A stretch of DNA of 22,381 nt from a virus (IMGVR_UViG_2585427768_000008:1-22381); one strand, 5' to 3'. Positions 1 through 20,653 are shown, numbered from the stretch's first letter. Translations and numbers: made by a program. The notes: generated by a model from the letters alone, not told the origin.

Positions 1-504
1 AGCATCAGAACCTACGCAGTGAATTGCAATGACGCATGGCTAAACACCGAAGGTGATGACATCTCCGGCTCATACGTTAAGTACAAAGACCATCAGGAAG
101 TGGTTGCCGCTCTTGAGGCCAAGTGCGCGGCGCTGGCTGCTGAGAATGCGGGAATAAAGTCTGCAATTCCAGAATCACGGGATATTGAGGATGACAATGA
201 CAATATGGATGACGTATCTCTCGCGGAAGACTTCGGGTTCAATCATGCAATAGAACGGATGAGGAGACAGATACCTGAAACGCCAACCACTGATGCTTTC
301 CTGGCTGAAGTCCGGGCGCAGGGGGTGGATGCTGCTATAGAAGCTGCAAAAAATCTGGTGGCCCAAGAATATGAGTATAAGGATTTCAAAGCGGCGCAGA
401 GTGATTGCTGTATGCACCCTGGTTCAGACCTGGTAGGGAAGGTTGAAATGACTGAGTGGTTAGTTGACTTTGCTGCCCAGCTTCGCAAAGGAGGCAACCA
501 GTGA
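1..504 (+). CDS. Ead/Ea22-like prophage protein, probably 5'-partial at window edge
   Basis: ORF frame is open from position 1 (first in-frame start is GTG at 19); stop TGA 502-504 overlaps the next start (GTGA). Acidic, coiled-coil-like sequence typical of small lambdoid early-left accessory proteins. Family assignment from memory only. Confidence 0.55.
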   Translation, partial: SIRTYAVNCNDAWLNTEGDDISGSYVKYKDHQEVVAALEAKCAALAAENAGIKSAIPESRDIEDDNDNMDDVSLAEDFGFNHAIERMRRQIPETPTTDAFLAEVRAQGVDAAIEAAKNLVAQEYEYKDFKAAQSDCCMHPGSDLVGKVEMTEWLVDFAAQLRKGGNQ

Positions 505-986
505 GCGAAATTAATTACCAGGCACTGCGTGAGGTGGCGGAACGTGCAATTCCAGCAATGGAACGCCTGTTAATGTTGCCAGCTGATGATGACTTGTTAA
601 GTGAACAGGAACTTAAAGATTACGGTGTGGATATTGATGCGCTCAACGCCTTCAAATTTCTGACCGGACCAGAAACCGTGCTGGCACTGCTGGATGAACG
701 GGAAAGAAACCTGCAATACATCAAAAGCCGCGATCAGGAGAACGAGGATATTGCGCTAACGGTAGGGAAGCTGCGCGTTGAGCTTGAAGCAGAAAAACAG
801 CGGGCAAAAGTTCTATTTATGGAAAATGCTCGGCTTAAGTCAGGCATAGCCGGTCTGATACACCTCGGTATTCGATATGCAGATGTTGAGGTCATGAAAA
901 TTGCTGGAGATGCCCAGCTTTCTACCCCATGCACTGACAGCATCATAAACAGCATTGCAACAGGCATTCGCATCAAAGGAGAGTGA
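501..986 (+). CDS. Ead/Ea22-like prophage protein
   Basis: 161-aa ORF, GTG start preceded by AGGAGG, translationally coupled to the upstream gene. N-terminus MSEINYQALRE resembles Ead/Ea22-family proteins as I remember them. Confidence 0.6.
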   Translation: MSEINYQALREVAERAIPAMERLLMLPADDDLLSEQELKDYGVDIDALNAFKFLTGPETVLALLDERERNLQYIKSRDQENEDIALTVGKLRVELEAEKQRAKVLFMENARLKSGIAGLIHLGIRYADVEVMKIAGDAQLSTPCTDSIINSIATGIRIKGE

Positions 987-987
987 T

Positions 988-1503
988 ATGGCGTTAACAC
1001 ACCACGAACTCTGTCAGATTGCGTACAAGTTCCTTAAGCGCAACGGGTTCAAGGTTTGTTTTCATGACCGCTTTATAGCTGTAACCAGTACCGGAGAACA
1101 GCCAGATGCTATGGGATTCAGAAATTCAGCATCATGCCTGATAGAGGCGAAGTGTTCTCGTGCTGACTTGTTAGCAGATAGAAAAAAGCGTTTTCGTAAA
1201 AATCCGTCTCTTGGAATGGGCGACTGGCGATTCTTTATTAGTGAGCCGGGAATTATTTCAATTGAGGATTTACCACCTGGCTGGGGGTTACTTCACGTTG
1301 TTAACGGAAGAGTACGGAAAGTACATGGGTGGCCCAGGGGTAATTGCTGTTGGGGTAATCCTGACGATAAGCCATTTACTGGAAATAAGCAGGTTGAATG
1401 CGATTACATGTTATCTGCATTAAGGCGCATGGAGTTGAGAGGGCACCTTAATGAAATATATGACGGTGTAATTGTTAATAAGAAAGAAGGAAACGCGGCA
1501 TGA
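988..1503 (+). CDS. hypothetical protein with PD-(D/E)xK nuclease-like motif
   Basis: ATG at 988 with AAGGAG 7 nt upstream (the track start at 955 lacks an RBS). Protein contains ...QPDAMGF...(x13)...LIEAKCS, a PD...ExK signature. Stop overlaps next start (ATGA at 1500). Confidence 0.6.
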   Translation: MALTHHELCQIAYKFLKRNGFKVCFHDRFIAVTSTGEQPDAMGFRNSASCLIEAKCSRADLLADRKKRFRKNPSLGMGDWRFFISEPGIISIEDLPPGWGLLHVVNGRVRKVHGWPRGNCCWGNPDDKPFTGNKQVECDYMLSALRRMELRGHLNEIYDGVIVNKKEGNAA

Positions 1504-2228
1504 TCACTATTACCAAAGAGCGACTACTGACAATCAAGCAGTGCCGCGAAACATACGGACCTGGTAGCAACGTTGTACTGCCAGCAGAAGAAGCGGAAGA
1601 ACTGGCACGGATTGCACTGGCATCGCTGGAAGCAGATCCAGTTAAACGAGTTAACTCAGATCAGATGCGCCGAGTCTGCTTAGAAGCTAATCGCCATTTA
1701 GATAAATATGACGCGATGGCGAAAGAGGTAAATAAGTTGCTTGGACGCATCGCCCCGCCAGCGCCGGTAGTGCCGGAAGAAGCAACTCCGGAAAACGTAG
1801 AAATGCTCTCTGGCTATGTTTCCACGTACAAATTAACCGATAGCGAGCGCGATATTGCTGCCGAAATATGGAACGCCTGCCGCGCCGCCATGCTTCAGTC
1901 CGGAAACTTTCGGGAAAATAAAGATTCGTCAACCAATAATTTTCGGAAAATCCCGGAAGCGTCAACCAACCATCCGGTAACTCCGGATGGTTGGATAAGC
2001 TGTAGTGATCGAATGCCAGAAATGGGAGAGCGACAATACTATGTGTTAGCAGCTGACTTTAAAAACAACTACCCACCAAGCATCCCCAACACTCAGGTCG
2101 GCGTATATGGCGACTGGTTTAATGATGGCAATCCCACTTGGGATGACGGTGATGGCGAAGACCTGCATCTCAAAGAAGTAACCCACTGGATGCCGCTACC
2201 AGAACCGCCGAAGGAGGTACGCCAATGA
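1500..2228 (+). CDS. DUF551-type prophage protein
   Basis: 242-aa ORF; C-terminal W/D-rich segment ending ...THWMPLPEPP matches my recollection of the DUF551 signature found in enterobacterial prophage early regions. Confidence 0.65.
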   Translation: MITITKERLLTIKQCRETYGPGSNVVLPAEEAEELARIALASLEADPVKRVNSDQMRRVCLEANRHLDKYDAMAKEVNKLLGRIAPPAPVVPEEATPENVEMLSGYVSTYKLTDSERDIAAEIWNACRAAMLQSGNFRENKDSSTNNFRKIPEASTNHPVTPDGWISCSDRMPEMGERQYYVLAADFKNNYPPSIPNTQVGVYGDWFNDGNPTWDDGDGEDLHLKEVTHWMPLPEPPKEVRQ

Positions 2229-2315
2229 CCTAGCCTGAAGCATTTGCAATTGTAGTGGCTGCCATTTCGATCGCACTGATTGTTTTTGCGATTTTGCCGC
2301 TGGGGGTAAAATAGT

Positions 2316-2507
2316 TCACCTGCATGGAGATTTGATGCCGGGGAATTGTGGGGGAGCATTCAAACCTCTCCCCTTCCCGGTTAAAGACTCCATTGCTTTG
2401 CGGTCAGAGAGATACATCAGCTTCATCAGCTTAATGAAACGCATAGATCCGCCATGCTTTTTCAGCAAATACGCTGCCATTTGCGCAACTTTTTCTTCAT
2501 TAAACAT
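2316..2507 (-). pseudogene. truncated Panacea (DUF4065)/SocA-like antitoxin fragment
   Basis: 63-aa ORF with N-terminus ...AQMAAYLLKKHGGSMRFIKLMKLMYLSDRKAMESLTG, resembling the Panacea LKLQKLLY core, but it ends after about 60 aa where full-length members run 150-300 aa. Confidence 0.35.
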
Positions 2508-2600: not shown

Positions 2601-2630
2601 GCCCCGCACTTCCGTACGGGGCCATTTCTG
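2601..2630. terminator. GC hairpin between convergent gene sets, possible bidirectional terminator
   Basis: GCCCCG (2601-2606), 10-nt loop, CGGGGC (2617-2622), followed on the + strand by CATTTCTG. Lies immediately 3' of the giant gene stop (2631-2633, minus strand). Confidence 0.4.
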
Positions 2631-5600
2631 TTAATCCACTCCCACTTTTTTGTTGTACTCGCGGTTAAACCGATCCACGGCAACCTTCATATCCCGCTCT
2701 ACCGATTTCACCATCGCCGCCTGCTGCGCCAGACTGAGAGAACTGTCGGCATAAATGGCATCGCGCTGTTTGCGCAAATCCTTCAGTCTCTTCCGGGTAT
2801 CCTGCATAAGCCCGTTCATCAACAATTTTCCGTTGTTCTCGTCAATGAACGCCGTTCTTTCTGCACCGGTCAGACTCTTCAGCTCTGCGTGATACTGCGC
2901 AACCTCTGTCATCCGGTCGTACATCTTCTGCTGGTCTGCATACGGCATCACCTCACCCGAAATTTTCCCCAGGAAGGGCACCTGCTGTTCCGGTATATCA
3001 ATACCATTCAGCGATTTCACCGCCGCATCCGTGGTTTTGGAAATGAAGCGCCCTGTCCCTCCGGAGATATAGTCAATCCAGAATTTCAGCGATTCCGGTG
3101 TGATATCCACCGCGCCGGGACGATACTGGCTGCCACCTGAGAACGCATTCAGCCAGAATGCAAACGCCTTGTACGCTTCTGGCGTTGAACGTCTTCCCAG
3201 CTGGCTGTCAGGTTTTGGTGTACCAAACGGCATGTTCTCCTGGTAAATCTGCGCCCCCATGAAGTTTTCGTTCATGGCAAGATTCGCAAACGGACGCAGA
3301 ATTGTCGGTGCTGCATTTTTCAGCAATGCCCCCGACAACGTTTCCGACGTCTCGCTGCCGATCGGGCTGAATGCCCCCAGGATACCGCCGACAACATTAC
3401 CGGCAGCACGTGAAGCAGTCAGGTCGCCCGCTGCCACACCTTCAGCTGTATGACCAAGCAGGAAGAACACGTTGTACCCGTAAGGCAGAGGAATACTCCA
3501 GTACTCACCGGCCTTGCCCCCGAACATCGATTTCATGATGACGAGGTTACGCTCTTTCACATGAGACGGTACTTTGTCGTACCAGTTACCCCCGTCATCA
3601 TCCTCCCCCGCCACACTGCGGTTAAGCGAGCCAAGCAGATAACCCGCTCCCACAGCTGCAAGCACGATTTTCTGCGGTACATTGAGATTCTTCCAGCGAA
3701 GGCGCTCCAGTAACGGCCCGTCGCCATTAAGATGTCCGAGCGTTCTCACCAGGTTTGCGGTCCCCTGAATGCTGGCGTTGGCAAACATGTACAGCGAGTT
3801 CATCAGCATCCCCTGCTCACCACGACGGTTAAAGTTCACCGTCATGTTTTTGGCAAGAGACGCCGCCTGCTGGCGTGACAAACCGGCATCACGGGCGTGT
3901 TTATAGGCAGAAAGACGCAGAGCGTTTTCAACCGCGCCGTTGGCATCCTCGACCAGGTTCAGGAACGAATGCCATGCACCGATACTCTGGCCTTTCCATC
4001 CGCCCTTCGCCAGCGACACAAGGCGATCCATTTCCTTCTGCTGGCCCTCAAGGTCACCCATGTTAAACCAGCCGGTTTTACCTCCGTCCTCAACAAACTC
4101 TTTCCACACTTTCTGCCACTGTGCGCCTTTGCCCGTGAGGGTTTTACCCCGCAGACTTGCGTATACGGCTGACATGGCGGAACGGCTGTCTTTCACCACA
4201 GCCAGCGCGGATAAGTTATCCAGCTCTTTCAGTTTACCGTCGCTCCTTCCCTGCTCAGCCTTCAGGTTCATCACCGCAGTCTGCACGTCACGGATGAAGT
4301 TACTGACCAGAAATTCCGGGTTATACGACGTGTTCACCGTTGCCAGGAAGCGGTTAACTTTCCCCAGCGTACGGATTACGGCGTTACTGGTTTCCGGCCC
4401 CATGTTCTTCATCGCACGCATCAGGCGCGGATCATGAAGTTTAATGTAGTAAGTTTTGCCGTCCTTTTTGGTGGTGAAGTAGCGATCCGCCATCATTGCC
4501 ATCGGCACAGGGCGCTCGACAACTTCGCGAATGGTTTCACCAGTTTCCTGGTCCTTGCGCTCTGCAATCACACGCATTGTATCCGGTCTGTCATCAGTGA
4601 ATCCCTGCCAGTAATCCTTGTCGGGATTATCCTGTACCAGTTTCAGGAAGGCGTTACCCACTTCATTTTTGCGATTGCGGATCAGCGATTCACTCAAATC
4701 CTGTATCGCCTGAGTGGAAGGAGACTGTGCGCGGGATGCACGCCCCATGGCCTGCTTACTTTCACGCCCGCCGATGGTGAATCCCTTGCCTGTACGTGGC
4801 TGTGACACCACACCGTCAACATCCTGCCCTTTCAGGGGGACGTAGTAACGGTAGGCTTTCTGCCAGGCATCCACCACGCCGCTCTCTTCCAGTCCTGCCT
4901 CACGGATAATCTCACGGCGACGGGCCAGCATATCGTCAATAATCCCTGCCAGACGGTCATACTGTGCCTGTTTGCCGCTGTTACGCACACGCTGCATGAT
5001 TTCCGCCGCTTCCGCGTTGGTCATCCCCGAACCGCCGTCCGGCATTTTCGGGTTGATTTTCGCAATATGCACGTTACGTTCCGGCGCGTGACGGGCGTAG
5101 AGGTACTCATCCAGATCGGCCTGCGCAATTTTGTAGTCCGCCAGCAATTTGGCCAGCGGCTGAACGTAGCGCTCCTTCATTACGTTCAGGTCGTTTTCCG
5201 CCTTCCCGTGGAAGAGTTCTTCAGCCATATAGGCGTTATTGCTGTCATCTATTTTTCCGCCAGTTTTACGGATATTCTCCTGCACCGCCTTCAGCACCTG
5301 GAATTTATCCTGCATCTGGCGAACAAAACGGGATGCAATTGTCTCTTCCGGCGTCAGACTGCTGGTGCGGGAGTAATACGGCCCCTTGCGAATATCTTCA
5401 GGATAGAGTATTTTATCAACAGAGCCGCGATAAGAATGTTCCCCTTTGGGCAATTGGAGCCCTCTGTGCAGAAGGTTATCGCGGCTTAATTTTTCTCTCC
5501 GGTACAACGTTAAACCGGTCATTTCCATACTCTTCAGTTTTTTCCCGTTTTCCGTACCGTAAACAGATGCCACCTTGTTGATTTCCAGGCGCGACCGGAC

Positions 5601-8600
5601 AGCCTTCATGTGTACCGCTGACACCACCGGATCACCATTTTTATCCACGGCATCAAGCAGCATCACAACCGCGTTTCTTTCTGTCGCGGAACGGTAAATT
5701 GCATCCGGATCGTGCATCAGTTCCGGTAGTCTCTCGATAACATCCATCGGCACCACATGTTTCACACCATTGGTGGCCTTACGCACAGTGTCGCGGGAGA
5801 TAACCAGCGGCAAATCTGGTGCGCCAAGGTGACGCAATACCGGCGGCGTACGCCCGATGTTTACCGTTAAATCCGTTGAGCGCAGAGACTTCATCATTCT
5901 GGCAAGGTCATCACGATAACGCTCGCCCTCACCTTCCGGCACTTTGAACGGATCAGGCTTACCGCTACGGGAGTACTGAGACGATGCGTCCGCGCCATCC
6001 TCACGCGGCGTGTAACCTTCCCGCACACGCTGGCCTAACGTGCGAATAGTTTCGCGAACAAGTCTGATATCGTTCAGTTCCGTCGGCTTCAGTAACCCCG
6101 TACGACGCAGTACCCCTTTGACCAGGGCAACAACACGCTCCCATGCCGCCACGAATTTAATCGGCTGCTTCTCTGCCATATGCGCCAGAAATTCACCCGC
6201 CTGCACTTCCGGTGATTCCTTACCATAAGACGCATCAACCTTACGCCAGGCTTCACGGATGGTGGCGTTATCACTGTCACGGGTTTTCAGCACGGTCTTA
6301 ATAATCGTCTGATATTCCGCTGGCGTGACTACATGCTCCATTGCATGGTGAATAATCTCGTGACGTAACTTCTCGCGAACGGTCCGCCCGTCAGGGATGT
6401 TATCCGCCACCAGGACAATTTCACGTTTATCCGGACGATAGAACGCGTGCACCTTGCCGTAACCGTCGAATGATTCCCCCGCCAGTGCTTCAGCCTCTTT
6501 CTGTGACTTCACCACGCGGACCTTCAGGTCACTGTCCTTAATGCCACTAATCACGCCACGGGCAACAGCTTCAACCTGCGGGACCGGACTGCCTTTGGCT
6601 TCCGCACTACGGTTAACATCCGAAATCAGATTGCCTTCAGGTGTGCGGGTCACGCCCTTACGGGAATAAAACGCAACTCCCTTGTCCGTCTCACGGGTTT
6701 TCAGTGTTCGGAACAAGTGATCGAATGCCTCACGAATACCGCCATCCAGTTCTGCATTCGTCGGATAAGCGTAGGTGTCCGGCTGTCCATGGTCATCCGC
6801 CTTACGGATATTGACCAGATAATCATTCTCCACGCCAGCCATACGCGCTTTATCCTGAACATAACGCTCAAAGGCTCGCGCCGCCATTTCAACATCCGTT
6901 GACCAGTACGGTTTTGAACGAACGCCATCCAGGCGTTCAGAACGACGCAACATGTCACTGCTGTTAATGGCTTTCATCACGCCTTTAAACGCGTCGTAAA
7001 CCTCCTGACGTACCGGATATTCCGCATCAACATACCTGCCGTCTTTAAATACGCGCCCGGCACGCTGTGCTTCCGTCATATAGTCGCCACCTGACGTGAT
7101 CTTCCCGTCAGTGGAAACATCATAACGACCAAAATAATTATCCAGTGAATGGAACCATTCGTGGGCCAGCGCCCCCGGTCCGTTACCTTTTGTCAGGTTG
7201 ATTGCCACCTCACCCGGCTCATAGTGTGCCGCCGCCTTACCCTTACCACGGGCACCAAAAGCAAGCCCAAGACGACCGTTCAGAGAAAGCGCTTTTGTCG
7301 GCACGTTCAGCACGTCAGCCAGGTCATGCAGCGAGTCATAAGCCCGGTTCAAATCAGCCTGACGACGCGGACTTTCCACATAATTACCAAACTGCACACC
7401 ACGAAAACCAAACGCATCACTGAACTGCTCCGGCGAAACATCCCCCTTGCGGCGTTCTGGTCCGGTACGATCGCGGTTGGTGGCGTTACGCTGCTCCTCA
7501 CGCGAGACTTCACGCAGCGCCTTCACCTGATTAACCAGCTCATCACGATGTGTGCGCACATAATCATGTGCATCACGGGCAGACTCAAAACCGCCCTTCA
7601 GTTTCTGCCTGTTTTTGCCATAACCGATAAAAATGTCGCCACTGGCCTTATGCCGGTACACGTCAAAGGTTATTCTGTCATCAGCAGAGGTTGCTGGCGT
7701 TTCCCTTTCTCTGGAGCCTTGTTCATCGAAATATGCTTTCGCCTTTTTCAGTAACTCATCCCGGCTTTCCGAGAAAAAGAGGTCGCGCCCCTTGCTATCA
7801 CGAAGCGAATACATCATTTGCGGCGGATCGTAACGTTTTCCCCCGACAAACGAATAAACACCGGACCTGACACGATAGCCGGATGCTTTATCAATCTGCA
7901 ATGCAGAAAGCGTACGGAGCAGTTTCCAGGTATCCGACATGCTCCGTAACCCCGGCTTACTGTCCATCATATCAGCCAGTTTCGCTGCCGGAATTTTCCC
8001 CTCCAGCATACCGGCAGTAGCTTCGCGACCGCTTTTAACAATGCTGATCCATTTCTGCATGTTACGGCTTGTTCTGGTGGGAATTTCACTGCGATACAAC
8101 GCCATCATTGCCAGCGTGTCACTATCCACACCTTCTTTTTCCAGACGGGCATAATCCGGCTTTGGAAACAGTTTGCTCAGTGGTTGTGTCGCGTACTCCC
8201 CATCCTCCAGCGTTTTACCCATAGCTTCAGCAAGCTGCGCATAACGGTGTTTTGCCGCGCCCTTAATCTCCTCGCCAAAGTCTTCAATTTTCGCACCACG
8301 CGCCTGCTGGTGAGTGCTCGGTTTATCTACCGGCACCGGCACCTCAGTATCCGGAACATCGGTTATGGTCTGGCGATTATCCCCGGTCTGTCTGCGTGCT
8401 TCTGCCTGCTGTGCCAGTTCCGGAAGGGAGTCACGAACCATACGAGGGAGTGATTCAGGCTGTGGCATATCAACCCCACGCTGACTTTCAGGTGCAGGAA
8501 GACCTTCACGCACTGGTGCTGTGGCGTTCTGCTCATCCGGTGACGGCAGACCACGACGAACTGTTTCGCCCTCCAGTATTTCCCCCTGGCGACCAGCGGC

Positions 8601-10484
8601 ATTTTCCGGTGCCTGCGCACGTCCTTTCTGGAAACTCTGGCCCTTCACCTCACCGGTTGTGGTAAAACGACCACCACGTCCGGCCTGATTTTCATCCGGC
8701 GTACGCGCTACTTCTCCTGGTAACGGATATCCCTGTCCGGGATGAATATCGCCGGGAGCGGGAAGGCGTGGACGCTCAGTTAACTCCTGTGCTGTCGGAC
8801 CGGCATCACCTTCAGCCATCTGGGAACGCACCAGTTCTTCCGCCGTCGGCGCGTTGCCACGAGCAAGACGGGCCTGCACTTCTGTATCATCCCCCGTAAA
8901 ACCACGGAATCGCGGGTCACGCATGAACGCGGGCTGTTCCATCGGATCAGCATCAGTAATACGCTCTCCGTCAGCCAGAGTGTTAATGGTCTCCGTTGCC
9001 ACATCTTCAGAGAACGCAGGATTATCCATTTCAACGGCATACTGATTCTCGCCTTTCTTCACTACGGACGGTTTCAGGCCGGTGGCGCTGGCATTGCGGA
9101 AAACGTCGCTCCCCAGAGCACTTTTTTCATCCGTGAAATAACGGTTGTCCGGACGCACCTTTTCAATGCGTTCTGCTGGTCTGGACGCACCACTCTCGTT
9201 AATTTCAATACGAACTTCATCCGGATCGCGGAACCGCACCGTCGGGTAAATACTCCCGTCGCCATCATCCGCATTTTCCGGCTGTGGCTGTGCCTCCGGT
9301 CTGGCCTCCCGCTGAGGGCGAAGCACATCACGTATTGCCTGTAACTGCTGCTCTTCAGTATCAGTACGCCCTTCCTTCTGGCTGAGTTTTCGGTATTCCT
9401 CAAGCAGTTCAGGGCGCGGCTTCGCCTTCAGCTCATCCATCACCGCCTGTCGCTTCGCCTGTTCATCCAGTTCATTCAACAGCTGGCTGGCGGCTTCCCG
9501 GCGATGAACGGCAGACGTGTCTCCCTCATGTGCCATATCCGCATCAGCATACTGTTCCAGAAGCTGCTCGCGATTCATCCCCTGCATAGATTCACGATGC
9601 TGTGCCACCGGATCAACCGGTTCGGGTTGCGGAGCCGATTCGTCCTGAGGAACGCTTTCAGCCTCACGCATGGCTGCTTCATCTGCCGCCTGACGTTTTC
9701 CACGATATCCGGCAGCCGCACCGAATGGTGCCCCCATTGCAGCACCAAGGGCTGCACCTTCGATCGTTGCGTCAGCCACGCCCTCCCACGGTGACACATC
9801 CATTCCGGCGGTCTCACGCAATGCCGTGTTTTCCTGATAGCGTGAATAGCCACCCTGCGCCGCATTAATCGTCCCCTGTTCCGTGGCATTTCTGACAATG
9901 CCGCTTTTAACGGTCTTCGCCGTGCCCCGCATCGCCAGATTAAGCAACTGAGCATCGCCCAGTTTTGCCGCCATGGCATTCACAGCCAGCAATTCAGGAT
10001 CGGTTGCCAGCTGCGCACGCACCTCATCGGCAACACGCTCTTTTGCCAGGTCCATTTTCTGGCGGTCAGTAAGCTGCGCGTGCTGCGGATCTGCATCAAT
10101 TGACAAAAAGGTCTGCTGAAATTTCGGTGACTTCGCCAGCTCAGAATAATCCGCGTTAAGAACAGCATCTGCCGCTGCCATTGCACTCCGCCCTTGCGCA
10201 CTGACAGTGGAATGGGTGATCAGGCCTGCCTGGAAAAAATCCGGCATTTTTTTATCGACAGCTTCGGCTGCCAGTGCTGTGGCTCTTTCCGGCTGCATCC
10301 CTGCCGCGATGTATTTTTTCTCCAGCCCGGCGGTCAGCACTTTTCGCAGAGTGACATCACCCAGCTTTTTAGTCACACCGCCTGCAACCATATCCGGTAC
10401 AAGCGCACCAATCAGGTTAACTCCACAAGCCTTCGCAACTTCAGGGATGCCGACACCTTTAATCGGCTCATCAAGATTTTGCAT
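2631..10484 (-). CDS. giant multidomain protein (about 2617 aa) with zincin-like HExxH motifs; function unknown, possibly polyvalent-protein-like
   Basis: Uninterrupted 7.9-kb ORF on the minus strand. Preferred start is ATG at 10484 (AAGGA 7 nt upstream); the track start at 10517 has no RBS. HEWFH encoded at 7149-7163 and RHEIIHHAMEH at about 6334-6363. No Walker A or methyltransferase motifs seen. GC content visibly higher than the neighbouring AT-rich operon. Confidence 0.9.
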   Translation of the reverse strand: MQNLDEPIKGVGIPEVAKACGVNLIGALVPDMVAGGVTKKLGDVTLRKVLTAGLEKKYIAAGMQPERATALAAEAVDKKMPDFFQAGLITHSTVSAQGRSAMAAADAVLNADYSELAKSPKFQQTFLSIDADPQHAQLTDRQKMDLAKERVADEVRAQLATDPELLAVNAMAAKLGDAQLLNLAMRGTAKTVKSGIVRNATEQGTINAAQGGYSRYQENTALRETAGMDVSPWEGVADATIEGAALGAAMGAPFGAAAGYRGKRQAADEAAMREAESVPQDESAPQPEPVDPVAQHRESMQGMNREQLLEQYADADMAHEGDTSAVHRREAASQLLNELDEQAKRQAVMDELKAKPRPELLEEYRKLSQKEGRTDTEEQQLQAIRDVLRPQREARPEAQPQPENADDGDGSIYPTVRFRDPDEVRIEINESGASRPAERIEKVRPDNRYFTDEKSALGSDVFRNASATGLKPSVVKKGENQYAVEMDNPAFSEDVATETINTLADGERITDADPMEQPAFMRDPRFRGFTGDDTEVQARLARGNAPTAEELVRSQMAEGDAGPTAQELTERPRLPAPGDIHPGQGYPLPGEVARTPDENQAGRGGRFTTTGEVKGQSFQKGRAQAPENAAGRQGEILEGETVRRGLPSPDEQNATAPVREGLPAPESQRGVDMPQPESLPRMVRDSLPELAQQAEARRQTGDNRQTITDVPDTEVPVPVDKPSTHQQARGAKIEDFGEEIKGAAKHRYAQLAEAMGKTLEDGEYATQPLSKLFPKPDYARLEKEGVDSDTLAMMALYRSEIPTRTSRNMQKWISIVKSGREATAGMLEGKIPAAKLADMMDSKPGLRSMSDTWKLLRTLSALQIDKASGYRVRSGVYSFVGGKRYDPPQMMYSLRDSKGRDLFFSESRDELLKKAKAYFDEQGSRERETPATSADDRITFDVYRHKASGDIFIGYGKNRQKLKGGFESARDAHDYVRTHRDELVNQVKALREVSREEQRNATNRDRTGPERRKGDVSPEQFSDAFGFRGVQFGNYVESPRRQADLNRAYDSLHDLADVLNVPTKALSLNGRLGLAFGARGKGKAAAHYEPGEVAINLTKGNGPGALAHEWFHSLDNYFGRYDVSTDGKITSGGDYMTEAQRAGRVFKDGRYVDAEYPVRQEVYDAFKGVMKAINSSDMLRRSERLDGVRSKPYWSTDVEMAARAFERYVQDKARMAGVENDYLVNIRKADDHGQPDTYAYPTNAELDGGIREAFDHLFRTLKTRETDKGVAFYSRKGVTRTPEGNLISDVNRSAEAKGSPVPQVEAVARGVISGIKDSDLKVRVVKSQKEAEALAGESFDGYGKVHAFYRPDKREIVLVADNIPDGRTVREKLRHEIIHHAMEHVVTPAEYQTIIKTVLKTRDSDNATIREAWRKVDASYGKESPEVQAGEFLAHMAEKQPIKFVAAWERVVALVKGVLRRTGLLKPTELNDIRLVRETIRTLGQRVREGYTPREDGADASSQYSRSGKPDPFKVPEGEGERYRDDLARMMKSLRSTDLTVNIGRTPPVLRHLGAPDLPLVISRDTVRKATNGVKHVVPMDVIERLPELMHDPDAIYRSATERNAVVMLLDAVDKNGDPVVSAVHMKAVRSRLEINKVASVYGTENGKKLKSMEMTGLTLYRREKLSRDNLLHRGLQLPKGEHSYRGSVDKILYPEDIRKGPYYSRTSSLTPEETIASRFVRQMQDKFQVLKAVQENIRKTGGKIDDSNNAYMAEELFHGKAENDLNVMKERYVQPLAKLLADYKIAQADLDEYLYARHAPERNVHIAKINPKMPDGGSGMTNAEAAEIMQRVRNSGKQAQYDRLAGIIDDMLARRREIIREAGLEESGVVDAWQKAYRYYVPLKGQDVDGVVSQPRTGKGFTIGGRESKQAMGRASRAQSPSTQAIQDLSESLIRNRKNEVGNAFLKLVQDNPDKDYWQGFTDDRPDTMRVIAERKDQETGETIREVVERPVPMAMMADRYFTTKKDGKTYYIKLHDPRLMRAMKNMGPETSNAVIRTLGKVNRFLATVNTSYNPEFLVSNFIRDVQTAVMNLKAEQGRSDGKLKELDNLSALAVVKDSRSAMSAVYASLRGKTLTGKGAQWQKVWKEFVEDGGKTGWFNMGDLEGQQKEMDRLVSLAKGGWKGQSIGAWHSFLNLVEDANGAVENALRLSAYKHARDAGLSRQQAASLAKNMTVNFNRRGEQGMLMNSLYMFANASIQGTANLVRTLGHLNGDGPLLERLRWKNLNVPQKIVLAAVGAGYLLGSLNRSVAGEDDDGGNWYDKVPSHVKERNLVIMKSMFGGKAGEYWSIPLPYGYNVFFLLGHTAEGVAAGDLTASRAAGNVVGGILGAFSPIGSETSETLSGALLKNAAPTILRPFANLAMNENFMGAQIYQENMPFGTPKPDSQLGRRSTPEAYKAFAFWLNAFSGGSQYRPGAVDITPESLKFWIDYISGGTGRFISKTTDAAVKSLNGIDIPEQQVPFLGKISGEVMPYADQQKMYDRMTEVAQYHAELKSLTGAERTAFIDENNGKLLMNGLMQDTRKRLKDLRKQRDAIYADSSLSLAQQAAMVKSVERDMKVAVDRFNREYNKKVGVD

Positions 10485-10562
10485 AGGGATATCCTTTTTC
10501 GTACTTTCAGTACGCATTATGATTGAACTGAAAGTTTTTGCAAGTGCTTTAGTATCGTACTC
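10485..10562. promoter_or_regulatory. divergent promoter/operator switch region between giant gene and cI-like repressor
   Basis: Minus-strand promoter TTGCAA (10538-10543), 16-nt spacer, CATAAT (complement of 10516-10521). Perfect 15-bp palindrome CGTACTTTCAGTACG (10500-10514) just downstream of the -10; inverted partial copy ACTGAAAGT (10527-10535). A third CGTAC-N5-GTTCA element (10556-10570) overlaps the cI start. cI has no Shine-Dalgarno; TAGTAT (10550-10555) lies 7 nt before its ATG, suggesting a leaderless transcript as for lambda pRM. Confidence 0.5.
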
Positions 10563-11270
10563 ATGGTTCAGAATGAAAAAGTGCGCAAAGAATTCGCCCA
10601 GCGGCTAGCGCAAGCCTGTAAAGAAGCTGGTCTTGATGAACATGGTAGGGGAATGGCTATAGCCCGTGCCCTTTCTCTTTCGTCCAAAGGCGTTAGCAAA
10701 TGGTTTAATGCTGAGTCTTTACCGCGTCAGGAAAAAATGAATGCGCTTGCGAAATTTCTAAACGTTGATGTTGTTTGGCTTCAGCACGGCACTTCGTTAA
10801 ATGGAGCGAATGATGAAGATACTCTTTCATTTGTTGGCAAATTAAAAAAAGGGTTAGTGCGCGTGGTTGGTGAGGCAATTCTTGGTGTTGATGGTGCCAT
10901 CGAGATGACCGAAGAGCGCGATGGGTGGCTCAAAATTTATAGCGATGATCCAGATGCCTTTGGCCTTCGTGTGAAAGGAGACAGCATGTGGCCCAGAATA
11001 AAATCAGGAGAATATGTACTCATTGAGCCTAACACCAAAGTATTCCCGGGTGATGAGGTGTTTGTCAGAACCGTTGAAGGACACAACATGATTAAGGTTC
11101 TTGGCTATGACAGAGATGGAGAATACCAATTTACAAGCATTAACCAGGATCACAGGCCTATAACGTTGCCTTATCATCAAGTAGCAAAGGTGGAGTATGT
11201 AGCTGGTATTCTGAAGCAATCTCGCCATCTGGATGACATCGAGGCAAGGGAGTGGCTGAAAAGTTCGTGA
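10563..11270 (+). CDS. cI: CI-like prophage repressor (N-terminal HTH, C-terminal S24 LexA-like peptidase)
   Basis: 235-aa ORF. N-terminal HTH-like segment (GMAIARALSLSSKGVSKWFN) and C-terminal GDSMWP serine motif with a downstream conserved lysine (MIKVLG), as in LexA/CI autocleaving repressors. Position and orientation match cI relative to the pL operon. Confidence 0.88.
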   Translation: MVQNEKVRKEFAQRLAQACKEAGLDEHGRGMAIARALSLSSKGVSKWFNAESLPRQEKMNALAKFLNVDVVWLQHGTSLNGANDEDTLSFVGKLKKGLVRVVGEAILGVDGAIEMTEERDGWLKIYSDDPDAFGLRVKGDSMWPRIKSGEYVLIEPNTKVFPGDEVFVRTVEGHNMIKVLGYDRDGEYQFTSINQDHRPITLPYHQVAKVEYVAGILKQSRHLDDIEAREWLKSS

Positions 11271-11330
11271 CTTCATCGTCACATAGCTGGTAACCAGTGG
11301 CCAGAAGAAACGTTTGGGTGAGGAGGATAG

Positions 11331-11672
11331 ATGGCGTTCACTGACCTTGAATATCAAGCGGTCAAAAAAGAAGTTCACCAATTCATTGAAAGCATAAGGC
11401 CGCCTGAACATATCCGCAATGAACTGGATATTGTTTATAGCATCAATGACCAAACGATAGATATCGGCGAACAGCGCCCCGTGTGGCAGGGCAACCCAGG
11501 TGAAACAAACATCCTGCCATCAGCAAGAATCAAGTACATACGTTCTCTGGATAGATGGAAAATCTATTGGATGCGGAAGGATATGAAATGGCATCAGTAC
11601 AGTACTGAACTTTCGCTGACTGATGCGCTTGAGCTTGTGCGTGCTGACCCGGATTGCTGCTTCTTCGGATGA
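11331..11672 (+). CDS. hypothetical protein, first gene downstream of cI
   Basis: 113-aa ORF with strong RBS GAGGAGG before the ATG; same strand as cI and no terminator between them. No recognisable motifs. Confidence 0.6.
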   Translation: MAFTDLEYQAVKKEVHQFIESIRPPEHIRNELDIVYSINDQTIDIGEQRPVWQGNPGETNILPSARIKYIRSLDRWKIYWMRKDMKWHQYSTELSLTDALELVRADPDCCFFG

Positions 11673-11739
11673 GTGAAGAGACGTTTGGATGATGGATGGT
11701 CGCAGAGATGCGGCCTGATTCTAAAATAGGATATAAAAA

Positions 11740-12201
11740 ATGAGAATACTAGGTGTTAGAGCGGCGCCCAAAGTTACATCTTTTGTTGTATATTGCACTA
11801 ATGAGTCTGCACTCAAATGTGTTGATGTTATTAAAATACCTTCGACCTTAGACACACCAGAAAAATTAAAGTATGTGAGAAATAACATCCTCGACATTCT
11901 TAATTTATATAATGTTGAATTAGCTGCCATACGCGTTACTGAATCAAACTCTGATAATCTTAGCATTGACCGCCTTTATATAGAAGCTGTTATTCAAGAA
12001 GCATTTTCAAGCAGTGATGTAAGAAAATATTACACTATTAGAAAATCTGGCATGAAATCATCATTGAACCTAACAGAGATCGAGTATAAAGAAATATTGA
12101 AGTCACACCGCAATATAAATGGAATCGATAATTCTGGTTTTACAACTGAAACAAATGAAGCTGTTTTGGCTGCTCTATCTGCGGAGGTAAGGGGATGCTA
12201 A
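11740..12201 (+). CDS. hypothetical protein, upstream partner of Ser/Thr kinase
   Basis: 153-aa ORF in a markedly AT-rich segment; AGGA upstream of the ATG; 3' end overlaps the kinase start by 7 nt. No recognisable motifs. Confidence 0.6.
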   Translation: MRILGVRAAPKVTSFVVYCTNESALKCVDVIKIPSTLDTPEKLKYVRNNILDILNLYNVELAAIRVTESNSDNLSIDRLYIEAVIQEAFSSSDVRKYYTIRKSGMKSSLNLTEIEYKEILKSHRNINGIDNSGFTTETNEAVLAALSAEVRGC

Positions 12202-13241
12202 CTCCATACAAAAGAGCTGATGTAGAATTCGAATGGATTAGTGATCTAGAAGAACAGGGTTGTTTTTCAAAAGTATATCTGGCTCATGACAGACACCTAG
12301 CTCATGACTTGGTGATTAAAGAAATAGAAAAAAAAGAAAACACTAACCACGACGACTACTTTAATGAAGCAAGGCTTCTCTATAAACATGCACATCCAAA
12401 TATTGTGCAAGTTCAGTATGCTGCTCAATGTGAGAGCAATATCTATATAGCCATGCCATTTTATCATAATGGTTCGCTAAACCAATTAATGAAAAAAAAT
12501 AATCTTACAAGCAGGGAGATAATACGGTATTCCATTCAATTTTTAAGTGGACTTTATCATATACACTCAAAAGGTCTTATGCATTTTGATATAAAACCTA
12601 ATAACATTATGATATCAAACAGAAATGAGGCCATGCTATCTGACTTTGGATTATCTCAGTTAGTCAATGAGGAATCGAGAGCTGCGCCTGAGTTTGGATA
12701 TCATTTTCATGTGCCACCGGAATATTTTTCTTTATCAACAAATGATTATAATTTCACATATGACATATATCAGGCAGGATTAACCATATATAGAATGTGT
12801 GTTGGACATGATAATTTTGAAAGAGAAAGATCTGCATTTAGCACGATTGAACAACTCAGAGAGTCGATAATTAATGGCTGCTATCCATTAAAAGAGTATC
12901 CTCCCCATATACATAAAAAATTAATAACAATAGTGAACAAATGCATTCATGTAGATCCAAATGAAAGATATCAATCCGTACTAGATGTACTAAACGATCT
13001 CTCAGCTATAAGTGATGGCGTTCTTGACTGGCGTCTACAGATGACGAAACCAACTAACGGCACATGCGAATGGCAAAAAAAGTCTGGGGACGCTATACTG
13101 TCTATAGTTTTTGACGCAGAAAATTCGTCTACTACTGGTTTTCGTTTATACGATGATGGGCGGAAAAGGCGTGCTACGAACTTAACAATATCCTCAGGAT
13201 GTACCCCTACAAAACTGTATAGGTTATTAAAGGATAACTGA
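12195..13241 (+). CDS. eukaryotic-like (Hanks-type) Ser/Thr protein kinase
   Basis: 348-aa ORF with GGAGG 7 nt upstream. Kinase subdomain motifs in order: glycine-rich-like loop EQGCFSKVY, VIK lysine, catalytic loop HFDIKPNN (about 12583-12606), DFG (12642-12650), PPE (APE-like), DIYQAG. AT-rich. Confidence 0.85.
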   Translation: MLTPYKRADVEFEWISDLEEQGCFSKVYLAHDRHLAHDLVIKEIEKKENTNHDDYFNEARLLYKHAHPNIVQVQYAAQCESNIYIAMPFYHNGSLNQLMKKNNLTSREIIRYSIQFLSGLYHIHSKGLMHFDIKPNNIMISNRNEAMLSDFGLSQLVNEESRAAPEFGYHFHVPPEYFSLSTNDYNFTYDIYQAGLTIYRMCVGHDNFERERSAFSTIEQLRESIINGCYPLKEYPPHIHKKLITIVNKCIHVDPNERYQSVLDVLNDLSAISDGVLDWRLQMTKPTNGTCEWQKKSGDAILSIVFDAENSSTTGFRLYDDGRKRRATNLTISSGCTPTKLYRLLKDN

Positions 13242-13243
13242 TC

Positions 13244-13408
13244 ATGAAAAAGCGCGAGGAAGTAAGCAAGCTGCCTCGCAGACGTGATGCAGCATTAGCG
13301 GTTCCCTACAAAAAAGATGAGTTCATAAGCCCTTCTGATGACAAAAAATTTTCAAAGGCGAAAAGTTTTACATCTACATCTCTAAAAGATAAATACTTTA
13401 AAATCTAG
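13244..13408 (+). CDS. small basic protein (54 aa), translationally coupled to kinase
   Basis: ATG at 13244, 2 nt after the kinase stop, with AAGGA upstream; stop TAG 13406-13408 directly precedes the terminator. Not in the supplied ORF track (below its length cutoff); read by hand. Confidence 0.35.
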   Translation: MKKREEVSKLPRRRDAALAVPYKKDEFISPSDDKKFSKAKSFTSTSLKDKYFKI

Positions 13409-13434
13409 CCCGGCCTCAGCGCCGGGTTTTCTTT
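13409..13434 (+). terminator. rho-independent terminator ending the cI/kinase operon (tIMM-like)
   Basis: CCCGGC (13409-13414), 6-nt loop, GCCGGG (13421-13426), followed by TTTTCTTT. Confidence 0.7.
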
Positions 13435-13605
13435 GCCTCACGATCCCCCACCTAAAAAAACATAACTCATTGTATTTATTGATGTAACTCGCTAAACCAT
13501 GCAGTTCTGATCCCTGCCGCATAACCTTCATCAGCCACATTTTCAAAAATAAATTTCCTTATATATCAGAATCATACTTCGTAGAGTTAATAAATCACCA
13601 AAATT

Positions 13606-13650
13606 CGTACCAATAGTTCTTGATAATGTCGAACTATTGGTTCACTATTA
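13606..13650 (+). promoter_or_regulatory. candidate pL-like promoter with inverted-repeat operator
   Basis: 11-bp inverted repeat ACCAATAGTTC (13609-13619) / GAACTATTGGT (13631-13641) with 11-bp spacer containing TTGATA (13620-13625, -35-like); weak -10-like CACTAT at 13643-13648. CGTAC-N5-GTTCT at 13606-13620 resembles elements in the cI switch region. Confidence 0.4.
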
Positions 13651-13717
13651 TCGTCATCAGCAGGACGCATTACTCACCAGGGCGGTGAATATACAACGAT
13701 TCGAATATGAATCTACG

Positions 13718-13732
13718 GCGCTGACAAAGCGC
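13718..13732 (+). promoter_or_regulatory. nutL-like boxB RNA hairpin (P22 type)
   Basis: GCGCT GACAA AGCGC: 5-bp stem with GACAA pentaloop, the boxB form I recall for phage P22. Lies between the pL-like promoter and the N-like gene. No convincing boxA found upstream. Confidence 0.6.
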
Positions 13733-13742
13733 AATAACCAAA

Positions 13743-13885
13743 GTGAACTTTGGGGTGTGGTGAAGGGTTCATGGACGGGAATATGTCGCACGTAAAGCGG
13801 CGAGGCCTGTGGGACTATTGCCGAATTGAAGTAGGCCGAAACAGGTCGAAATGGGTCTCCCACCTACCACACCACCAAAGTTCAT
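13743..13885 (+). other. long-range helix in the N-like gene leader (possible RNase III-type processing or translational control structure)
   Basis: TGAACTTTGG (13744-13753) and GTGTGGT (13755-13761) pair with ACCACAC (13867-13873) and CCAAAGTTCA (13876-13885), about 17 bp with one bulge, enclosing about 105 nt. The helix ends 1 nt before the AGGAGG Shine-Dalgarno (13887-13892). Confidence 0.4.
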
Positions 13886-13897
13886 CAGGAGGTCTAT

Positions 13898-14998
13898 ATG
13901 ACACGCAGAACTCAGTTCAAAGGCAATTCACGTTCTCGTCGTCGTGAGCGTTTAAAGGCAAAGGCATTAGCTAACTGCGTACTGGCCCGCGAAGAAGCAA
14001 TAAGTTCAGAAGTATTACACCGCCCTACTCTAAGCAGAGCGCAGATTCAGGCTAAAGGTACTCACGAAACGCCTGAGCGCATAGAAGACGCTAAGCCAAT
14101 TAAGTTCATGGCACAGGACGTGATCTGGCAACAGAAAGAATACAGACGCAATCTGGAGCGAGCAGCCATTGTGTACGCGAATGAGTTTGGACATAAGCAA
14201 CCAGAAACTGGTGTATGTCTTCCAAACGTAGCCATTTACGCGGCAGGCTACCGGAAATCAAAACAACTGACGGCGAGGGGATTGATGACCACGCCTTCAG
14301 TTTTGCCGCAAAAGTTATGGCGTCCGCTTGCAGAGATTAAAAACTTCGTTGAAAAAATGCCTGATGGAGTTCGCCTTACGGAAGTTACTAAAAAAGTTAA
14401 GACATTTGCCGAACTGTCAGGAAAGGAGAGAAACCAGCTCATAGATTTTATCGATAAACGGGAAAGCATCATTGTATTTAAGGTCAGAAAAGAAGGTTCT
14501 GGTAACGGAGTAACCTTTTTCCGCCACAAAAAATATGGATATCCCAAACGGGAAGGAAACGTCACAATCACTAAGGACCTTCAATCAAAATTATGTACCA
14601 GATGCGGGCAGACAAAATCAGTCAATGATTTTTATTCAGATGCCAGCAAGCGTGACGGGAGAGCCATTTATTGCAAGAAGTGCGAATCTGCAATGAAACG
14701 CTCACGCAGAAAATGCAACAAATTAATTCTGCAACAACAGGAACCTGAAATGAATAACCTCAAAGCAGTTTCACCTTCACCAGAAATACTCAGAAAACAG
14801 GCTGAAGAATTGCTGAAAGCCGCCGAAATTGCGGAGAAAAAACGCCAGGAAGATGATGCATTCAACAAAAAACTTGCGCCCTTAAAACTTGAAATCCTTC
14901 AGGCCGCCGGAAAAATGCAGCTTAAACTGGACGAATTCATCGACTGTATGGATGAAATGAATAAAGCAGTTCAGAAGCTTAAAGAGCTGACCGCCTGA
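13898..14998 (+). CDS. N-like transcription antiterminator with arginine-rich N-terminus, extended by a CxxC...CxxC zinc-ribbon and coiled-coil C-terminal region
   Basis: 366-aa ORF, AGGAGG 5 nt upstream. N-terminus KGNSRSRRRERLKAKALAN resembles the arginine-rich motif of the P22 N protein (recalled as GNAKTRRHERRRKLAIER) and pairs with the P22-type boxB upstream. CTRCGQ...CKKCES motif near residue 250. Much longer than typical N proteins. Confidence 0.6.
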   Translation: MTRRTQFKGNSRSRRRERLKAKALANCVLAREEAISSEVLHRPTLSRAQIQAKGTHETPERIEDAKPIKFMAQDVIWQQKEYRRNLERAAIVYANEFGHKQPETGVCLPNVAIYAAGYRKSKQLTARGLMTTPSVLPQKLWRPLAEIKNFVEKMPDGVRLTEVTKKVKTFAELSGKERNQLIDFIDKRESIIVFKVRKEGSGNGVTFFRHKKYGYPKREGNVTITKDLQSKLCTRCGQTKSVNDFYSDASKRDGRAIYCKKCESAMKRSRRKCNKLILQQQEPEMNNLKAVSPSPEILRKQAEELLKAAEIAEKKRQEDDAFNKKLAPLKLEILQAAGKMQLKLDEFIDCMDEMNKAVQKLKELTA

Positions 14999-18895: not shown

Positions 18896-19188
18896 ATGCC
18901 TGGCTTATCCCCGATCGCATTGAAGAGCAGTCATGGGCACGACACTACCAGCAAATTGCCCGTGAAGAAACTGAAGCTGAGCTGGCAGACGACCTGGAAA
19001 AAGGTCTGCCCCAACACCTGTTTGAATCGCTATGCATCGATAATCTGCAACGTCACGGGGCCAGCAAAAAAGCTATTTCCCGTGCATTTGATGACGATGT
19101 CGATTTTCAGGAACGCATGGCAGAACACATCCGCTACATGGCTGAAACCATCGCCCGTCACCAAATTAATATTGATTCAGAGGTATAA
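18892..19188 (+). CDS. gam: Gam host-nuclease (RecBCD) inhibitor, short form
   Basis: 98-aa protein that I recognise from memory as close to the lambda GamS sequence (...QSWARHYQQ...[35 protein letters not shown]...). Confidence 0.9.
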
Positions 19189-19193
19189 AACTG

Positions 19194-19979: not shown

Positions 19980-20653
19980 CACCGGACATTATCCTGCAAC
20001 GTACAGGGATCGACGTGAGAGCTGTCGAACAGGGGGATGATGCGTGGCACAAATTACGGCTCGGCGTCATCACCGCTTCAGAAGTTCACAACGTGATAGC
20101 AAAACCCCGCTCAGGAAAGAAATGGCCTGACATGAAAATGTCCTACTTCCACACCCTGCTGGCTGAGGTTTGCACCGGTGTGGCTCCGGAAGTTAACGCT
20201 AAAGCGCTGGCCTGGGGAAAACAGTACGAGAACGACGCCAGAGCCCTCTTTGAGTTCACTTCCGGCGTGAATGTTACTGAATCCCCGATCATCTATCGCG
20301 ACGAAAGTATGCGCACCGCTTGCTCTCCCGATGGTTTATGCAGTGACGGCAACGGCCTTGAACTGAAATGCCCGTTTACCTCCCGGGATTTCATGAAATT
20401 CCGGCTCGGTGGTTTCGAGGCCATAAAGTCGGCTTACATGGCCCAGGTGCAGTACAGCATGTGGGTGACACGAAAAGATGCCTGGTACTTTGCCAACTAT
20501 GACCCGCGTATGAAGCGTGAAGGACTGCATTATGTCGTGGTCGAACGGGATGAAAAATACATGGCTGGTTTTGACGAAATGGTGCCAGAGTTCATCGAAA
20601 AAATGGACGAGGCACTGGCTGAAATTGGTTTTGTATTTGGGGAGCAATGGTGA
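19976..20653 (+). CDS. exo: lambda-type 5'-3' exonuclease (Red-alpha)
   Basis: 225-aa protein matching my recollection of lambda Exo ([68 protein letters not shown]...); start overlaps the bet stop (ATGA). Confidence 0.95.

Follow-up and report, generated by a model that had tools for sequence, protein, structure and literature searches.

In-frame fusion of the first 22 codons of cro to a giant virion gene in a defective Escherichia coli prophage, most probably by a single internal deletion

The 22,381-nucleotide stretch of viral DNA analysed here (IMGVR_UViG_2585427768_000008:1-22381; hereafter the window) contains a 2617-aa open reading frame that diverges from a cI-type repressor gene. Homology identifies this ORF as codons 1–22 of cro fused in frame to a known giant virion gene without its first 188 codons, and we consider it very probable that the fusion is the product of one internal deletion of ~37 kb in a defective E. 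coli prophage. A sequence-only reading had taken the giant gene to occupy the cro position naturally, in a distinct arrangement with no named counterpart. Instead, the ORF reads as a chimera of cro 1–22 and a late virion gene, and the arrangement as a whole is, by comparison with its relatives, made of already known parts (the 933W switch and the giant virion gene) rather than a new regulatory system.

The ORF and the divergent cI gene are separated by 78 bp (10485–10562), as had been described. Judged by its alignment to annotated phages, this gap is the well-studied immunity switch of 933W type, and its elements are as follows:

10563..11270, plus strand: intact cI repressor gene, 235 aa, identical at 235/235 residues to the cI of Stx2-converting phage 86 (Stx2-86) (Pfam HTH_3 and Peptidase_S24; PHROG_4, transcriptional repressor)
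10500..10514: oR1, at the same offset as the annotated oR1 of phi345 and 933W, 16–30 nt upstream of the cro ATG
10516..10543, minus strand: promoter PR, TTGCAA (10543–10538), 16 nt, CATAAT (10521–10516), from a promoter scan and the annotated pR of phi345 and 933W
10524–10538: oR2, inside PR, annotated in phi345 and 933W
10528–10555, plus strand: promoter PRM (pM), annotation transferred from phi345 and 933W at 98.8–100% nucleotide identity
10556–10570, plus strand: oR3, overlapping the cI start, transferred likewise at 98.8–100% nucleotide identity

All three operators are present and overlap the divergent promoters PR and PRM (10500–10570); oR1, pR, oR2, pM and oR3 lie in the window exactly as far from the cro start as they do in 933W and its relatives. 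The palindrome singled out by the sequence-only reading, CGTACTTTCAGTACG at 10500–10514, has its sole exact match in the window there and corresponds to oR1, the highest-affinity natural operator of 933W (PMC3317979); to call it perfect was slightly loose, as its fully complementary 6-bp arms flank a 3-nt centre. The promoter proposed on the minus strand was recovered as PR by a consensus scan, which found one minus-strand site against 0.3 expected in shuffled sequences. The S24 domain and the identity to Stx2-86 cI likewise bear out the suggestion that the divergent gene encodes an SOS-cleavable repressor. Both silencing of PR by the repressor and SOS induction have been established experimentally for 933W itself (PMC3317979, PMC5977221). 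A search of the window for additional oR1-like sites with up to three mismatches found none that was convincing; one such match, at 1311–1325, lies within a coding region and probably arose by chance.

Beyond the operators, the window resembles the 933W-type immunity region of 933W, Stx2-86, phi24B and phi345 in carrying DUF3024, L0083, stk and N downstream of cI, and positions 10418–14277 are 99.35% identical to the cro'-cI-stk-N segment of Stx2-86. It differs in that cro ends after codon 22, that nutR, cII and everything rightward of them are gone, and that N has lost its stop codon. A complete 75-aa cro as the first gene of PR is absent from the window.

Counted from its first ATG, the minus-strand ORF spans 2631–10517 (2628 aa); counted from the ATG at 10484, it spans 2631–10484 (2617 aa). 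Since the first of these, at 10517, shares bases with the -10 hexamer and is upstream of any transcription start of PR, the usable start is 10484, the start codon of cro. Three features make up the ORF:

10418..10484, minus strand: cro start codon (10484) and codons 1–22, MQNLDEPIKGVGIPEVAKACGV, identical to the N-terminus of the 75-aa Cro of Stx2-86
10417..10419: deletion junction, placed by a three-way alignment with the two parental sites in ES5 and by alignment with Stx2-86
2631..10417, minus strand: 3' 7.8 kb of a Sepvirinae-type giant late gene, residues 189–2783 of Stx2-86 gp35 plus the stop codon, by homology

The remnant at 10418..10484 is the only part of cro left, and giant-gene sequence takes over from there. 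Residue 23 of the chimera corresponds to residue 189 of gp35, so that Cro 1–22 and gp35 189–2783 together give 2617 aa, a protein of roughly 290 kDa; gp35 residues 1–188, the native N-terminus, are missing. As the sequence stands, the large ORF is wired to PR, to the ribosome-binding site of cro and to the start codon of cro.

The larger portion of the chimera is readily recognised. Window positions 2601–10424 match gp35 of Stx2-86 at 96.0% nucleotide identity over 7825 nt, and the 7.8-kb reading frame is intact, with no frameshift. The profile search that had been proposed for the 2617-aa protein identified it as the giant virion protein: PHROG_616 scored 5754 bits, aligning only from profile position 181 of 2793, and four Pfam domains lie above their cut-offs on the one polypeptide (in fusion coordinates, LPD5 at 881–1024, LPD1 at 1185–1264, MuF_C at 1574–1663 and LPD38 at 2300–2505). 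HExxH motifs occur at residues 1108 and 1375. A sequence search of the giant protein against PDB chains returned no match at E <= 0.01, and a hydropathy scan of the chimera revealed no strongly hydrophobic 19-residue window. We also considered a DarB-like antirestriction protein and rejected it; the corresponding PHROG matched weakly, through the C-terminal LPD38 region only.

The giant virion proteins of Sepvirinae (Stx2-86 gp35, POCJ13 gp71, phi24B gp47; PHROG_616) share the order LPD5-LPD1-MuF_C-LPD38 with the chimera, at 96–99.5% nucleotide identity over 7.8 kb, and their genes are followed by the same 63-aa ORF and DUF551/Ea22 module. Three differences set the window apart: firstly, 22 Cro residues stand in place of the native first 188; secondly, the gene lies behind the early promoter PR, as opposed to the end of a Q-dependent late operon; thirdly, the window holds no capsid genes, so packaging of the protein is impossible. 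The Sepvirinae giant protein is a 'polyvalent protein' as Iyer et al. 2017 use the term. This protein is an interesting and poorly understood virion component, and it is a property of the whole family, not of the locus in the window. The phi24B homolog gp47, which has the same domains, was detected in virions by proteomics, and this capsid-packaged protein has been proposed to act in ejection (bioRxiv 10.64898/2026.04.10.717836, preprint). A text search of Smith et al. 2012, on the genomics of Stx phages, found no mention of the large ORF.

The arrangement in related elements points to how the two parts came together. In short-tailed Stx-type phages (Stx2-86 gp35, phi24B gp47) the giant gene closes the late operon, and in POCJ13, ES5 and FORC_069 too it comes last among the morphogenesis genes. 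On the circular record of Stx2-86, the shorter arc between the two segments that match the window measures ~22 kb and passes through int and the early-left genes, and the late genes lie on the other arc. In E. coli ES5 and FORC_069, ynfG is occupied by an intact prophage whose end modules are those of the window, and ~36.7 kb separates the two breakpoints in them, an interval containing cro, cII, the replication genes, nin, Q, and the lysis, terminase, capsid and tail genes; POCJ13 has the same prophage gene order. The sequence-only reading had named as a contrary scenario a virion gene brought next to cI by deletion, with relatives retaining cro and late genes in between, and this is what ES5 and FORC_069 display at ynfG.

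On this basis, we propose that the window is what is left of a prophage of Sepvirinae type (933W/POCJ13-like, short-tailed), integrated in ynfG of E. coli 7-233-03_S3_C3. A single illegitimate-recombination deletion of ~36.7 kb would have removed everything from cro codon 23 to giant-gene codon 188, namely the rest of cro, nutR, cII, the replication genes, the nin region, Q, and the lysis, terminase, portal, capsid and tail genes. Its ends would have been joined in frame, leaving the ribosome-binding site, start codon and 22 codons of cro at the head of the chimera, behind PR and oR1–oR3.

Recombination between two resident prophages, or between tandem copies, could in principle have produced the same join. 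The left half of the window is closest to the FORC_069 ynfG prophage (99.5%; 99.3–99.5% across FORC_069/O104:H4-type prophages), while the best match of the right half is ES5 (98.8%), whose giant gene is not among the best-ranked matches to the left half; moreover, an E. coli genome carries several related prophages (median, 3 matching places). Yet lambdoid prophages are mosaics, so that differing best matches for different modules are expected, and prophages integrated in ynfG naturally have these two halves as their ends, the window's integrase type adjoining ynfG/ynfH in many genomes. One intramolecular deletion therefore explains order and orientation with no chromosomal rearrangement, and we regard an exchange between prophages as very unlikely. 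No exact parent is found among sequenced genomes; the best matches of the two halves come from different strains, both of them ynfG prophages.

The remaining content of the window is as follows:

19–504 and 501–986: two ead/Ea22-like genes, right-end (attR-proximal) module
1500–2228, plus strand: DUF551 gene, right-end module, which also includes one hypothetical gene
2316–2507, minus strand: conserved 63-aa ORF just after the giant gene, right-end module
11331–11672, plus strand: DUF3024 gene, downstream of cI as in 933W
11740–12201, plus strand: RuvC-like/L0083 gene, downstream of cI as in 933W
12195–13241, plus strand: stk Ser/Thr kinase gene, downstream of cI as in 933W
13898..14998, plus strand: N antiterminator (127 codons) fused by read-through to the downstream 237-aa ORF, 366 aa in total
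16823–18895, plus strand: RecE-family exonuclease VIII, early-left recombination gene
18892–19188, plus strand: gam, early-left recombination gene
19194–19979, plus strand: bet/RecT, early-left recombination gene
19976–20653, plus strand: exo, early-left recombination gene
20705–20956, plus strand: DUF4222 gene, early-left region
21218–22381, plus strand: integrase, early-left integration gene, abutting ynfG/ynfH in relatives

The right-end module (19..2507), in which the contig begins, keeps the gene order of POCJ13, ES5 and FORC_069. DUF3024, L0083 and stk (11331..13241) form the lysogen-expressed gene set of 933W type and are low in G+C (0.34–0.37). N reads through into the 237-aa ORF because its TGA stop codon is GGA (14279–14281). 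Replication, Q antiterminator, lysis, terminase, portal, capsid and tail genes, all of which ES5 has, are missing between cI and the giant gene. Like other cryptic lambdoid prophages of E. coli, this one has kept its integrase, recombination genes and repressor, has lost replication, lysis and morphogenesis, and is accumulating point lesions; unlike them, its deletion happens to have put a very long in-frame chimera under the control of a repressor, so far as a single-strain event.

At the junction itself, giant-gene sequence extends as far as 10417/10418, and from 10418/10419 onward the sequence is that of cro. The breakpoint resolves to one shared T inside a patchy 6/9 similarity (GTTtACgCC / GcTaACtCC), and the database matches, from E. 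coli genomes and phage records, all break at 10418–10424. A look in related genomes for the adjacency of cI and the giant gene had been proposed; in a megablast search with a 501-nt junction probe, none of 5,426 complete E. coli genomes and 50,697 phage records had a match that covered the junction. The exact junction 25-mer is absent from the GTDB species-representative genomes and from IMG/VR, no protein spans a 64-aa junction peptide among 5.8 billion protein clusters, and exact look-ups in a collection of 15 billion proteins found no other record with the junction. The fusion protein forms a one-member cluster, from one draft contig of assembly GCA_000713355.1 of E. coli 7-233-03_S3_C3, and this single contig is where the junction is seen.

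An assembler could be imagined to have wrongly linked the region of cro with a site inside the giant gene in a strain whose ynfG prophage is intact or rearranged differently. The junction is on one contig of one 2014 draft assembly and nowhere else, and this contig begins in repeated ead/Ea22 genes, which makes the region hard to assemble. Against this, the two sides of the breakpoint share only ~1 nt, whereas k-mer and overlap assemblers misjoin at repeats of tens of bases; there are no Ns at the join; both sides are colinear within one prophage, in the orientation expected of a simple internal deletion; and the second unique lesion, the lost stop codon of N, fits a decaying element. Together, these observations make an artefact unlikely. 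The identity of the two halves to ES5 (98.8%) and FORC_069 (99.5%), with 7.8 kb free of frameshifts, suggests that the deletion was recent.

Were the chimera expressed, it would presumably be from PR. In a lysogen, intact cI would keep PR off; upon SOS induction, cI would cleave itself, PR would be derepressed and the chimera would be made; Cro feedback would be lacking, and neither replication of the phage nor lysis nor particles would follow. Retention of PR, the operators, cI and the cro ribosome-binding site in frame makes such SOS-dependent expression plausible. The in-frame join to the start codon of cro behind PR and three operators, the intact cI and the intact 7.8-kb frame might even suggest an evolved or domesticated giant polyvalent effector under cI/SOS control, set free when the prophage is induced and serving, for instance, in defence or suicide. 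However, no other genome, phage or protein record searched has the junction; one join in three would be in frame by chance; at 99.5% identity to functional relatives, a recent origin accounts for the frame being intact; the chimera has lost the native 188-residue N-terminus; and the protein is a late, virion-packaged component in intact phages. We therefore find an evolved module extremely improbable, and the prophage appears to be defective and its arrangement an accident of decay. There is also a faint chance that the chimera, once made on SOS inactivation of cI, could harm the cell or interfere with superinfecting phages through its predicted HExxH metallopeptidase-like and MuF_C/PBECR RNase-like domains; if it were really made and active, a chance deletion would have given rise to an effector triggered by SOS, and selection could keep it.

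The locus matters little beyond E. coli 7-233-03_S3_C3. It nevertheless offers a base-resolved example of one microhomology-poor deletion making a lambdoid (Stx-type) prophage defective, and of how a deletion can put a late virion gene under an early promoter controlled by a repressor, with a result that looks like a novel operon; when a genome scan places a gene 'in the cro position', its start should be inspected for a remnant of the Cro N-terminus. In experiments, the chimera could also be used as a naturally formed construct that expresses the giant protein, minus its first 188 residues, from PR.

The long ORF is a single open frame, and 10484 is its usable start because the other candidate ATG, at 10517, runs into the –10 hexamer; read from 10484 it encodes 2617 aa, and 78 bp (10485–10562) separate its start codon from that of cI. 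A consensus scan returned one minus-strand promoter against 0.3 expected, and CGTACTTTCAGTACG, whose complementary 6-bp arms flank a 3-nt centre, has its sole exact match in the window immediately beside it. All the features named by the sequence-only reading (a 2617-aa ORF divergent from a cI-like repressor over 78 bp with a promoter and a palindrome) were thus found. The cI–cro gap of the phage 933W and phi345 records carries annotated oR1, pR, oR2, pM and oR3, and across the switch stretch the window is 98.8–100% identical to such operator-annotated records. Operator and promoter coordinates were therefore transferred from the annotation of these two phages:

Features of the window
2631–10517, minus strand: long ORF, from its first ATG
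10500–10514: oR1, identical to the palindrome CGTACTTTCAGTACG
10516–10543: pR, identical to the scanned minus-strand promoter (TTGCAA at 10543–10538, 16-nt spacer, CATAAT at 10521–10516)
10524–10538: oR2
10528–10555: pM
10556–10570: oR3
10563–11270, plus strand: repressor gene cI (235 aa, HTH/S24), divergent from the long ORF
13898–14998: N read-through product (366 aa), N (127 aa) in frame with a 237-aa downstream ORF
21218–22381: integrase

The promoter, the operators, the cro ribosome-binding site, the cro start codon and cI are all intact, and the repressor is identical to that of Stx2-converting phage 86 (Stx2-86) at 235/235 residues. Biochemical work on the repressor and operators of 933W identified OR1 as the natural site of strongest affinity (PMC3317979). 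The promoter/operator layout is already known and contains no new element.

Phage records that the whole window matched by megablast were those of short-tailed Shiga-toxin phages of the subfamily Sepvirinae (Stx2-86, 933W/EDL933-Stx, Stx2 phage I and POCJ13). Compared directly with Stx2-86, the region of interest falls into two blocks, adjoining at window 10418–10424 and widely separated in that phage: firstly, window 2601–10424 matches the interior and 3' end of gp35 (2783 aa, annotated "LPD5 domain-containing protein") at 96.0% identity; secondly, window 10418–14277 matches, at 99.35%, a stretch from inside cro via cI, DUF3024, a RuvC-like gene and stk to N. In Stx2-86, a normal 75-aa cro diverges from cI and is followed by cII, O and P, and gp35 is the final gene of the late structural cluster, adjoining the attachment site and int. 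The window's ORF opens with MQNLDEPIKGVGIPEVAKACGV, residues 1–22 of Cro, and so the "gene in the cro position" begins with cro itself; directly thereafter it reads NLIGALVPDMVAGG..., which is gp35 from residue 189. The match to PHROG_616, the family profile of the giant protein, begins no earlier than position 181 of 2793.

The exact 2617-aa product occurs on one contig, JORV01000119.1 of GCA_000713355.1, whose first 22,381 bases make up the window. NCBI lists the product as KEN06018.1 (hypothetical protein, Escherichia coli 7-233-03_S3_C3), and it is the only member, from one contig, of its protein cluster. The integrase adjoins ynfG/ynfH-dmsD-clcB in many E. coli genomes, and complete prophages occupy ynfG in E. 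coli ES5 and FORC_069. Their order is ynfF, ynfG', antirepressors, ead/Ea22 and DUF551; then, on the opposite strand, a 63-aa ORF, the giant gene (product 2783/2784 aa), tail, N4-gp56-type capsid, portal, terminase, lysis, Q, nin, replication, cII and cro; then cI, stk, N, exonuclease VIII, gam, bet, exo, int and ynfG''. Phage POCJ13 shares this gene order. Identity is 99.5% to FORC_069 in the left half of the window and 98.8% to ES5 in the right half. The halves are therefore the natural ends of a single type of prophage at a single chromosomal site, with the middle missing; the window lacks nutR, cII, the O/P-type replication genes, Q, the lysis genes and every morphogenesis gene. An event between different prophages could possibly have made the join, but is unnecessary, since both halves are ynfG-prophage ends.

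In a three-way alignment with the two parental sites in ES5, window 10380–10470 carries giant-gene sequence up to 10417, a shared T at 10418 and cro sequence from 10419, with patchy similarity around the junction (6/9 bases). The missing segment is about 36.7 kb in ES5 coordinates (about 12443–49178 of locus L012), and the junction is in frame, for which the prior probability is one in three. Misassembly of the draft is an unlikely source of the join: the flanks have essentially a single base in common there, no Ns are present, and the product is the colinear one expected from a simple deletion. With a 501-nt junction probe, no place among 5,426 complete E. coli genomes and 50,697 phage records was covered to at least 80%, and every match ended at window 10418–10424. 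An exact 25-mer over the junction was found neither in GTDB species-representative genomes nor in IMG/VR, and all matches of a 64-aa junction peptide were either to native Cro or to fragments of the native giant protein (...SAVWVAKGVNLIGAL...), none of them spanning the join.

That the giant gene belongs to an evolved system under cI control is contradicted by the complete absence of this junction elsewhere, by the truncated N-terminus of the chimera and by the late-gene context of the giant gene in all relatives. The local wiring proposed by the sequence-only reading stands, its promoter being pR and its palindrome oR1; the distinct giant-gene arrangement does not, as close relatives carry cro and late genes between cI and the giant gene, and a known virion protein has been moved beside cI by a recent deletion. 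The chimera, specific to this strain and made by deletion, joins two well-known components, both of known kinds.

By analogy with lambdoid and 933W switches, PR in a lysogen would be kept silent by cI at oR1/oR2 until RecA stimulated cI to cleave itself, which would relieve repression of both PR and PL. Transcription from PR would then presumably yield the 2617-aa chimera, undamped by any Cro, and transcription from PL would serve N, the recombination functions and int. Replication, lysis and particles would not be able to follow induction, which makes the element a defective prophage. Intact relatives have the giant gene some 36 kb away from PR, as a late gene that depends on Q; the protein it encodes needs a capsid, which the remnant can no longer make.

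Four Pfam domains, all far over the cut-off, were found in the chimera:

Pfam domains (residues of the chimera)
881–1024: LPD5
1185–1264: LPD1
1574–1663: MuF_C
2300–2505: LPD38

These domains define "polyvalent proteins", which, when phage-encoded, are proposed to ride in capsids and be delivered into the host (Iyer et al., 2017, PMC5512222). MuF-C is a predicted PBECR RNase-fold domain in that study, and MuF_C is called a metallopeptidase in a 2026 phi24B preprint (bioRxiv 10.64898/2026.04.10.717836). According to the preprint, the homologue gp47 of phi24B (2811 aa, same four domains) was seen by proteomics in purified virions and is invisible in cryo-EM maps; its authors propose an encapsidated ejection protein. 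Our search for solved structures related by sequence to the giant protein found none. The chimera also has two HExxH motifs, at residues 1108 and 1375 (HEWFH, HEIIH), both outside every reported Pfam match; these peptidase-like motifs may be part of separate, unmodelled domains. Directly downstream of the giant gene and co-oriented with it lies a conserved 63-aa ORF (window 2316–2507, minus strand), also present in ES5, FORC_069 (WP_000481379.1) and POCJ13.

The N stop codon, TGA in relatives, is GGA in the window (14279–14281), and the exact 366-aa read-through product was found on no other contig; the lost stop may mark a second site of decay in the prophage, or may be an error of sequencing. 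The 237-aa ORF after N belongs to PHROG_2539 and has weak matches of the HNH/endonuclease VII/Lar-like kind. A low-G+C island (window 11300–13500; 0.34–0.37 versus about 0.5 around it) contains DUF3024, RuvC-like/L0083 and the eukaryote-like Ser/Thr kinase gene stk, which lie between cI and N as they do in 933W; in that phage they are upstream of the annotated tM terminator and therefore co-transcribed with cI. The early-left operon (16823–20653) encodes a 690-aa RecE-family exonuclease VIII as well as the complete Red-type set of gam, bet/RecT and exo, the two recombination nucleases occurring together as in POCJ13 and many ynfG prophages.

The contig starts (window 1–1000) inside tandem ead/Ea22-like genes (19–504 and 501–986), repeats of which among resident prophages are the probable reason why the assembly broke here; the part towards attR (Ant genes, ynfG' and ynfF) therefore lies off this contig. 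Between the Ea22 genes and DUF551, a small ORF (window 955–1503, called 171 aa) is intact here and in POCJ13, and RefSeq calls it frameshifted in ES5 (L012 3013–3191) and FORC_069 (locus L013 20488–20666).
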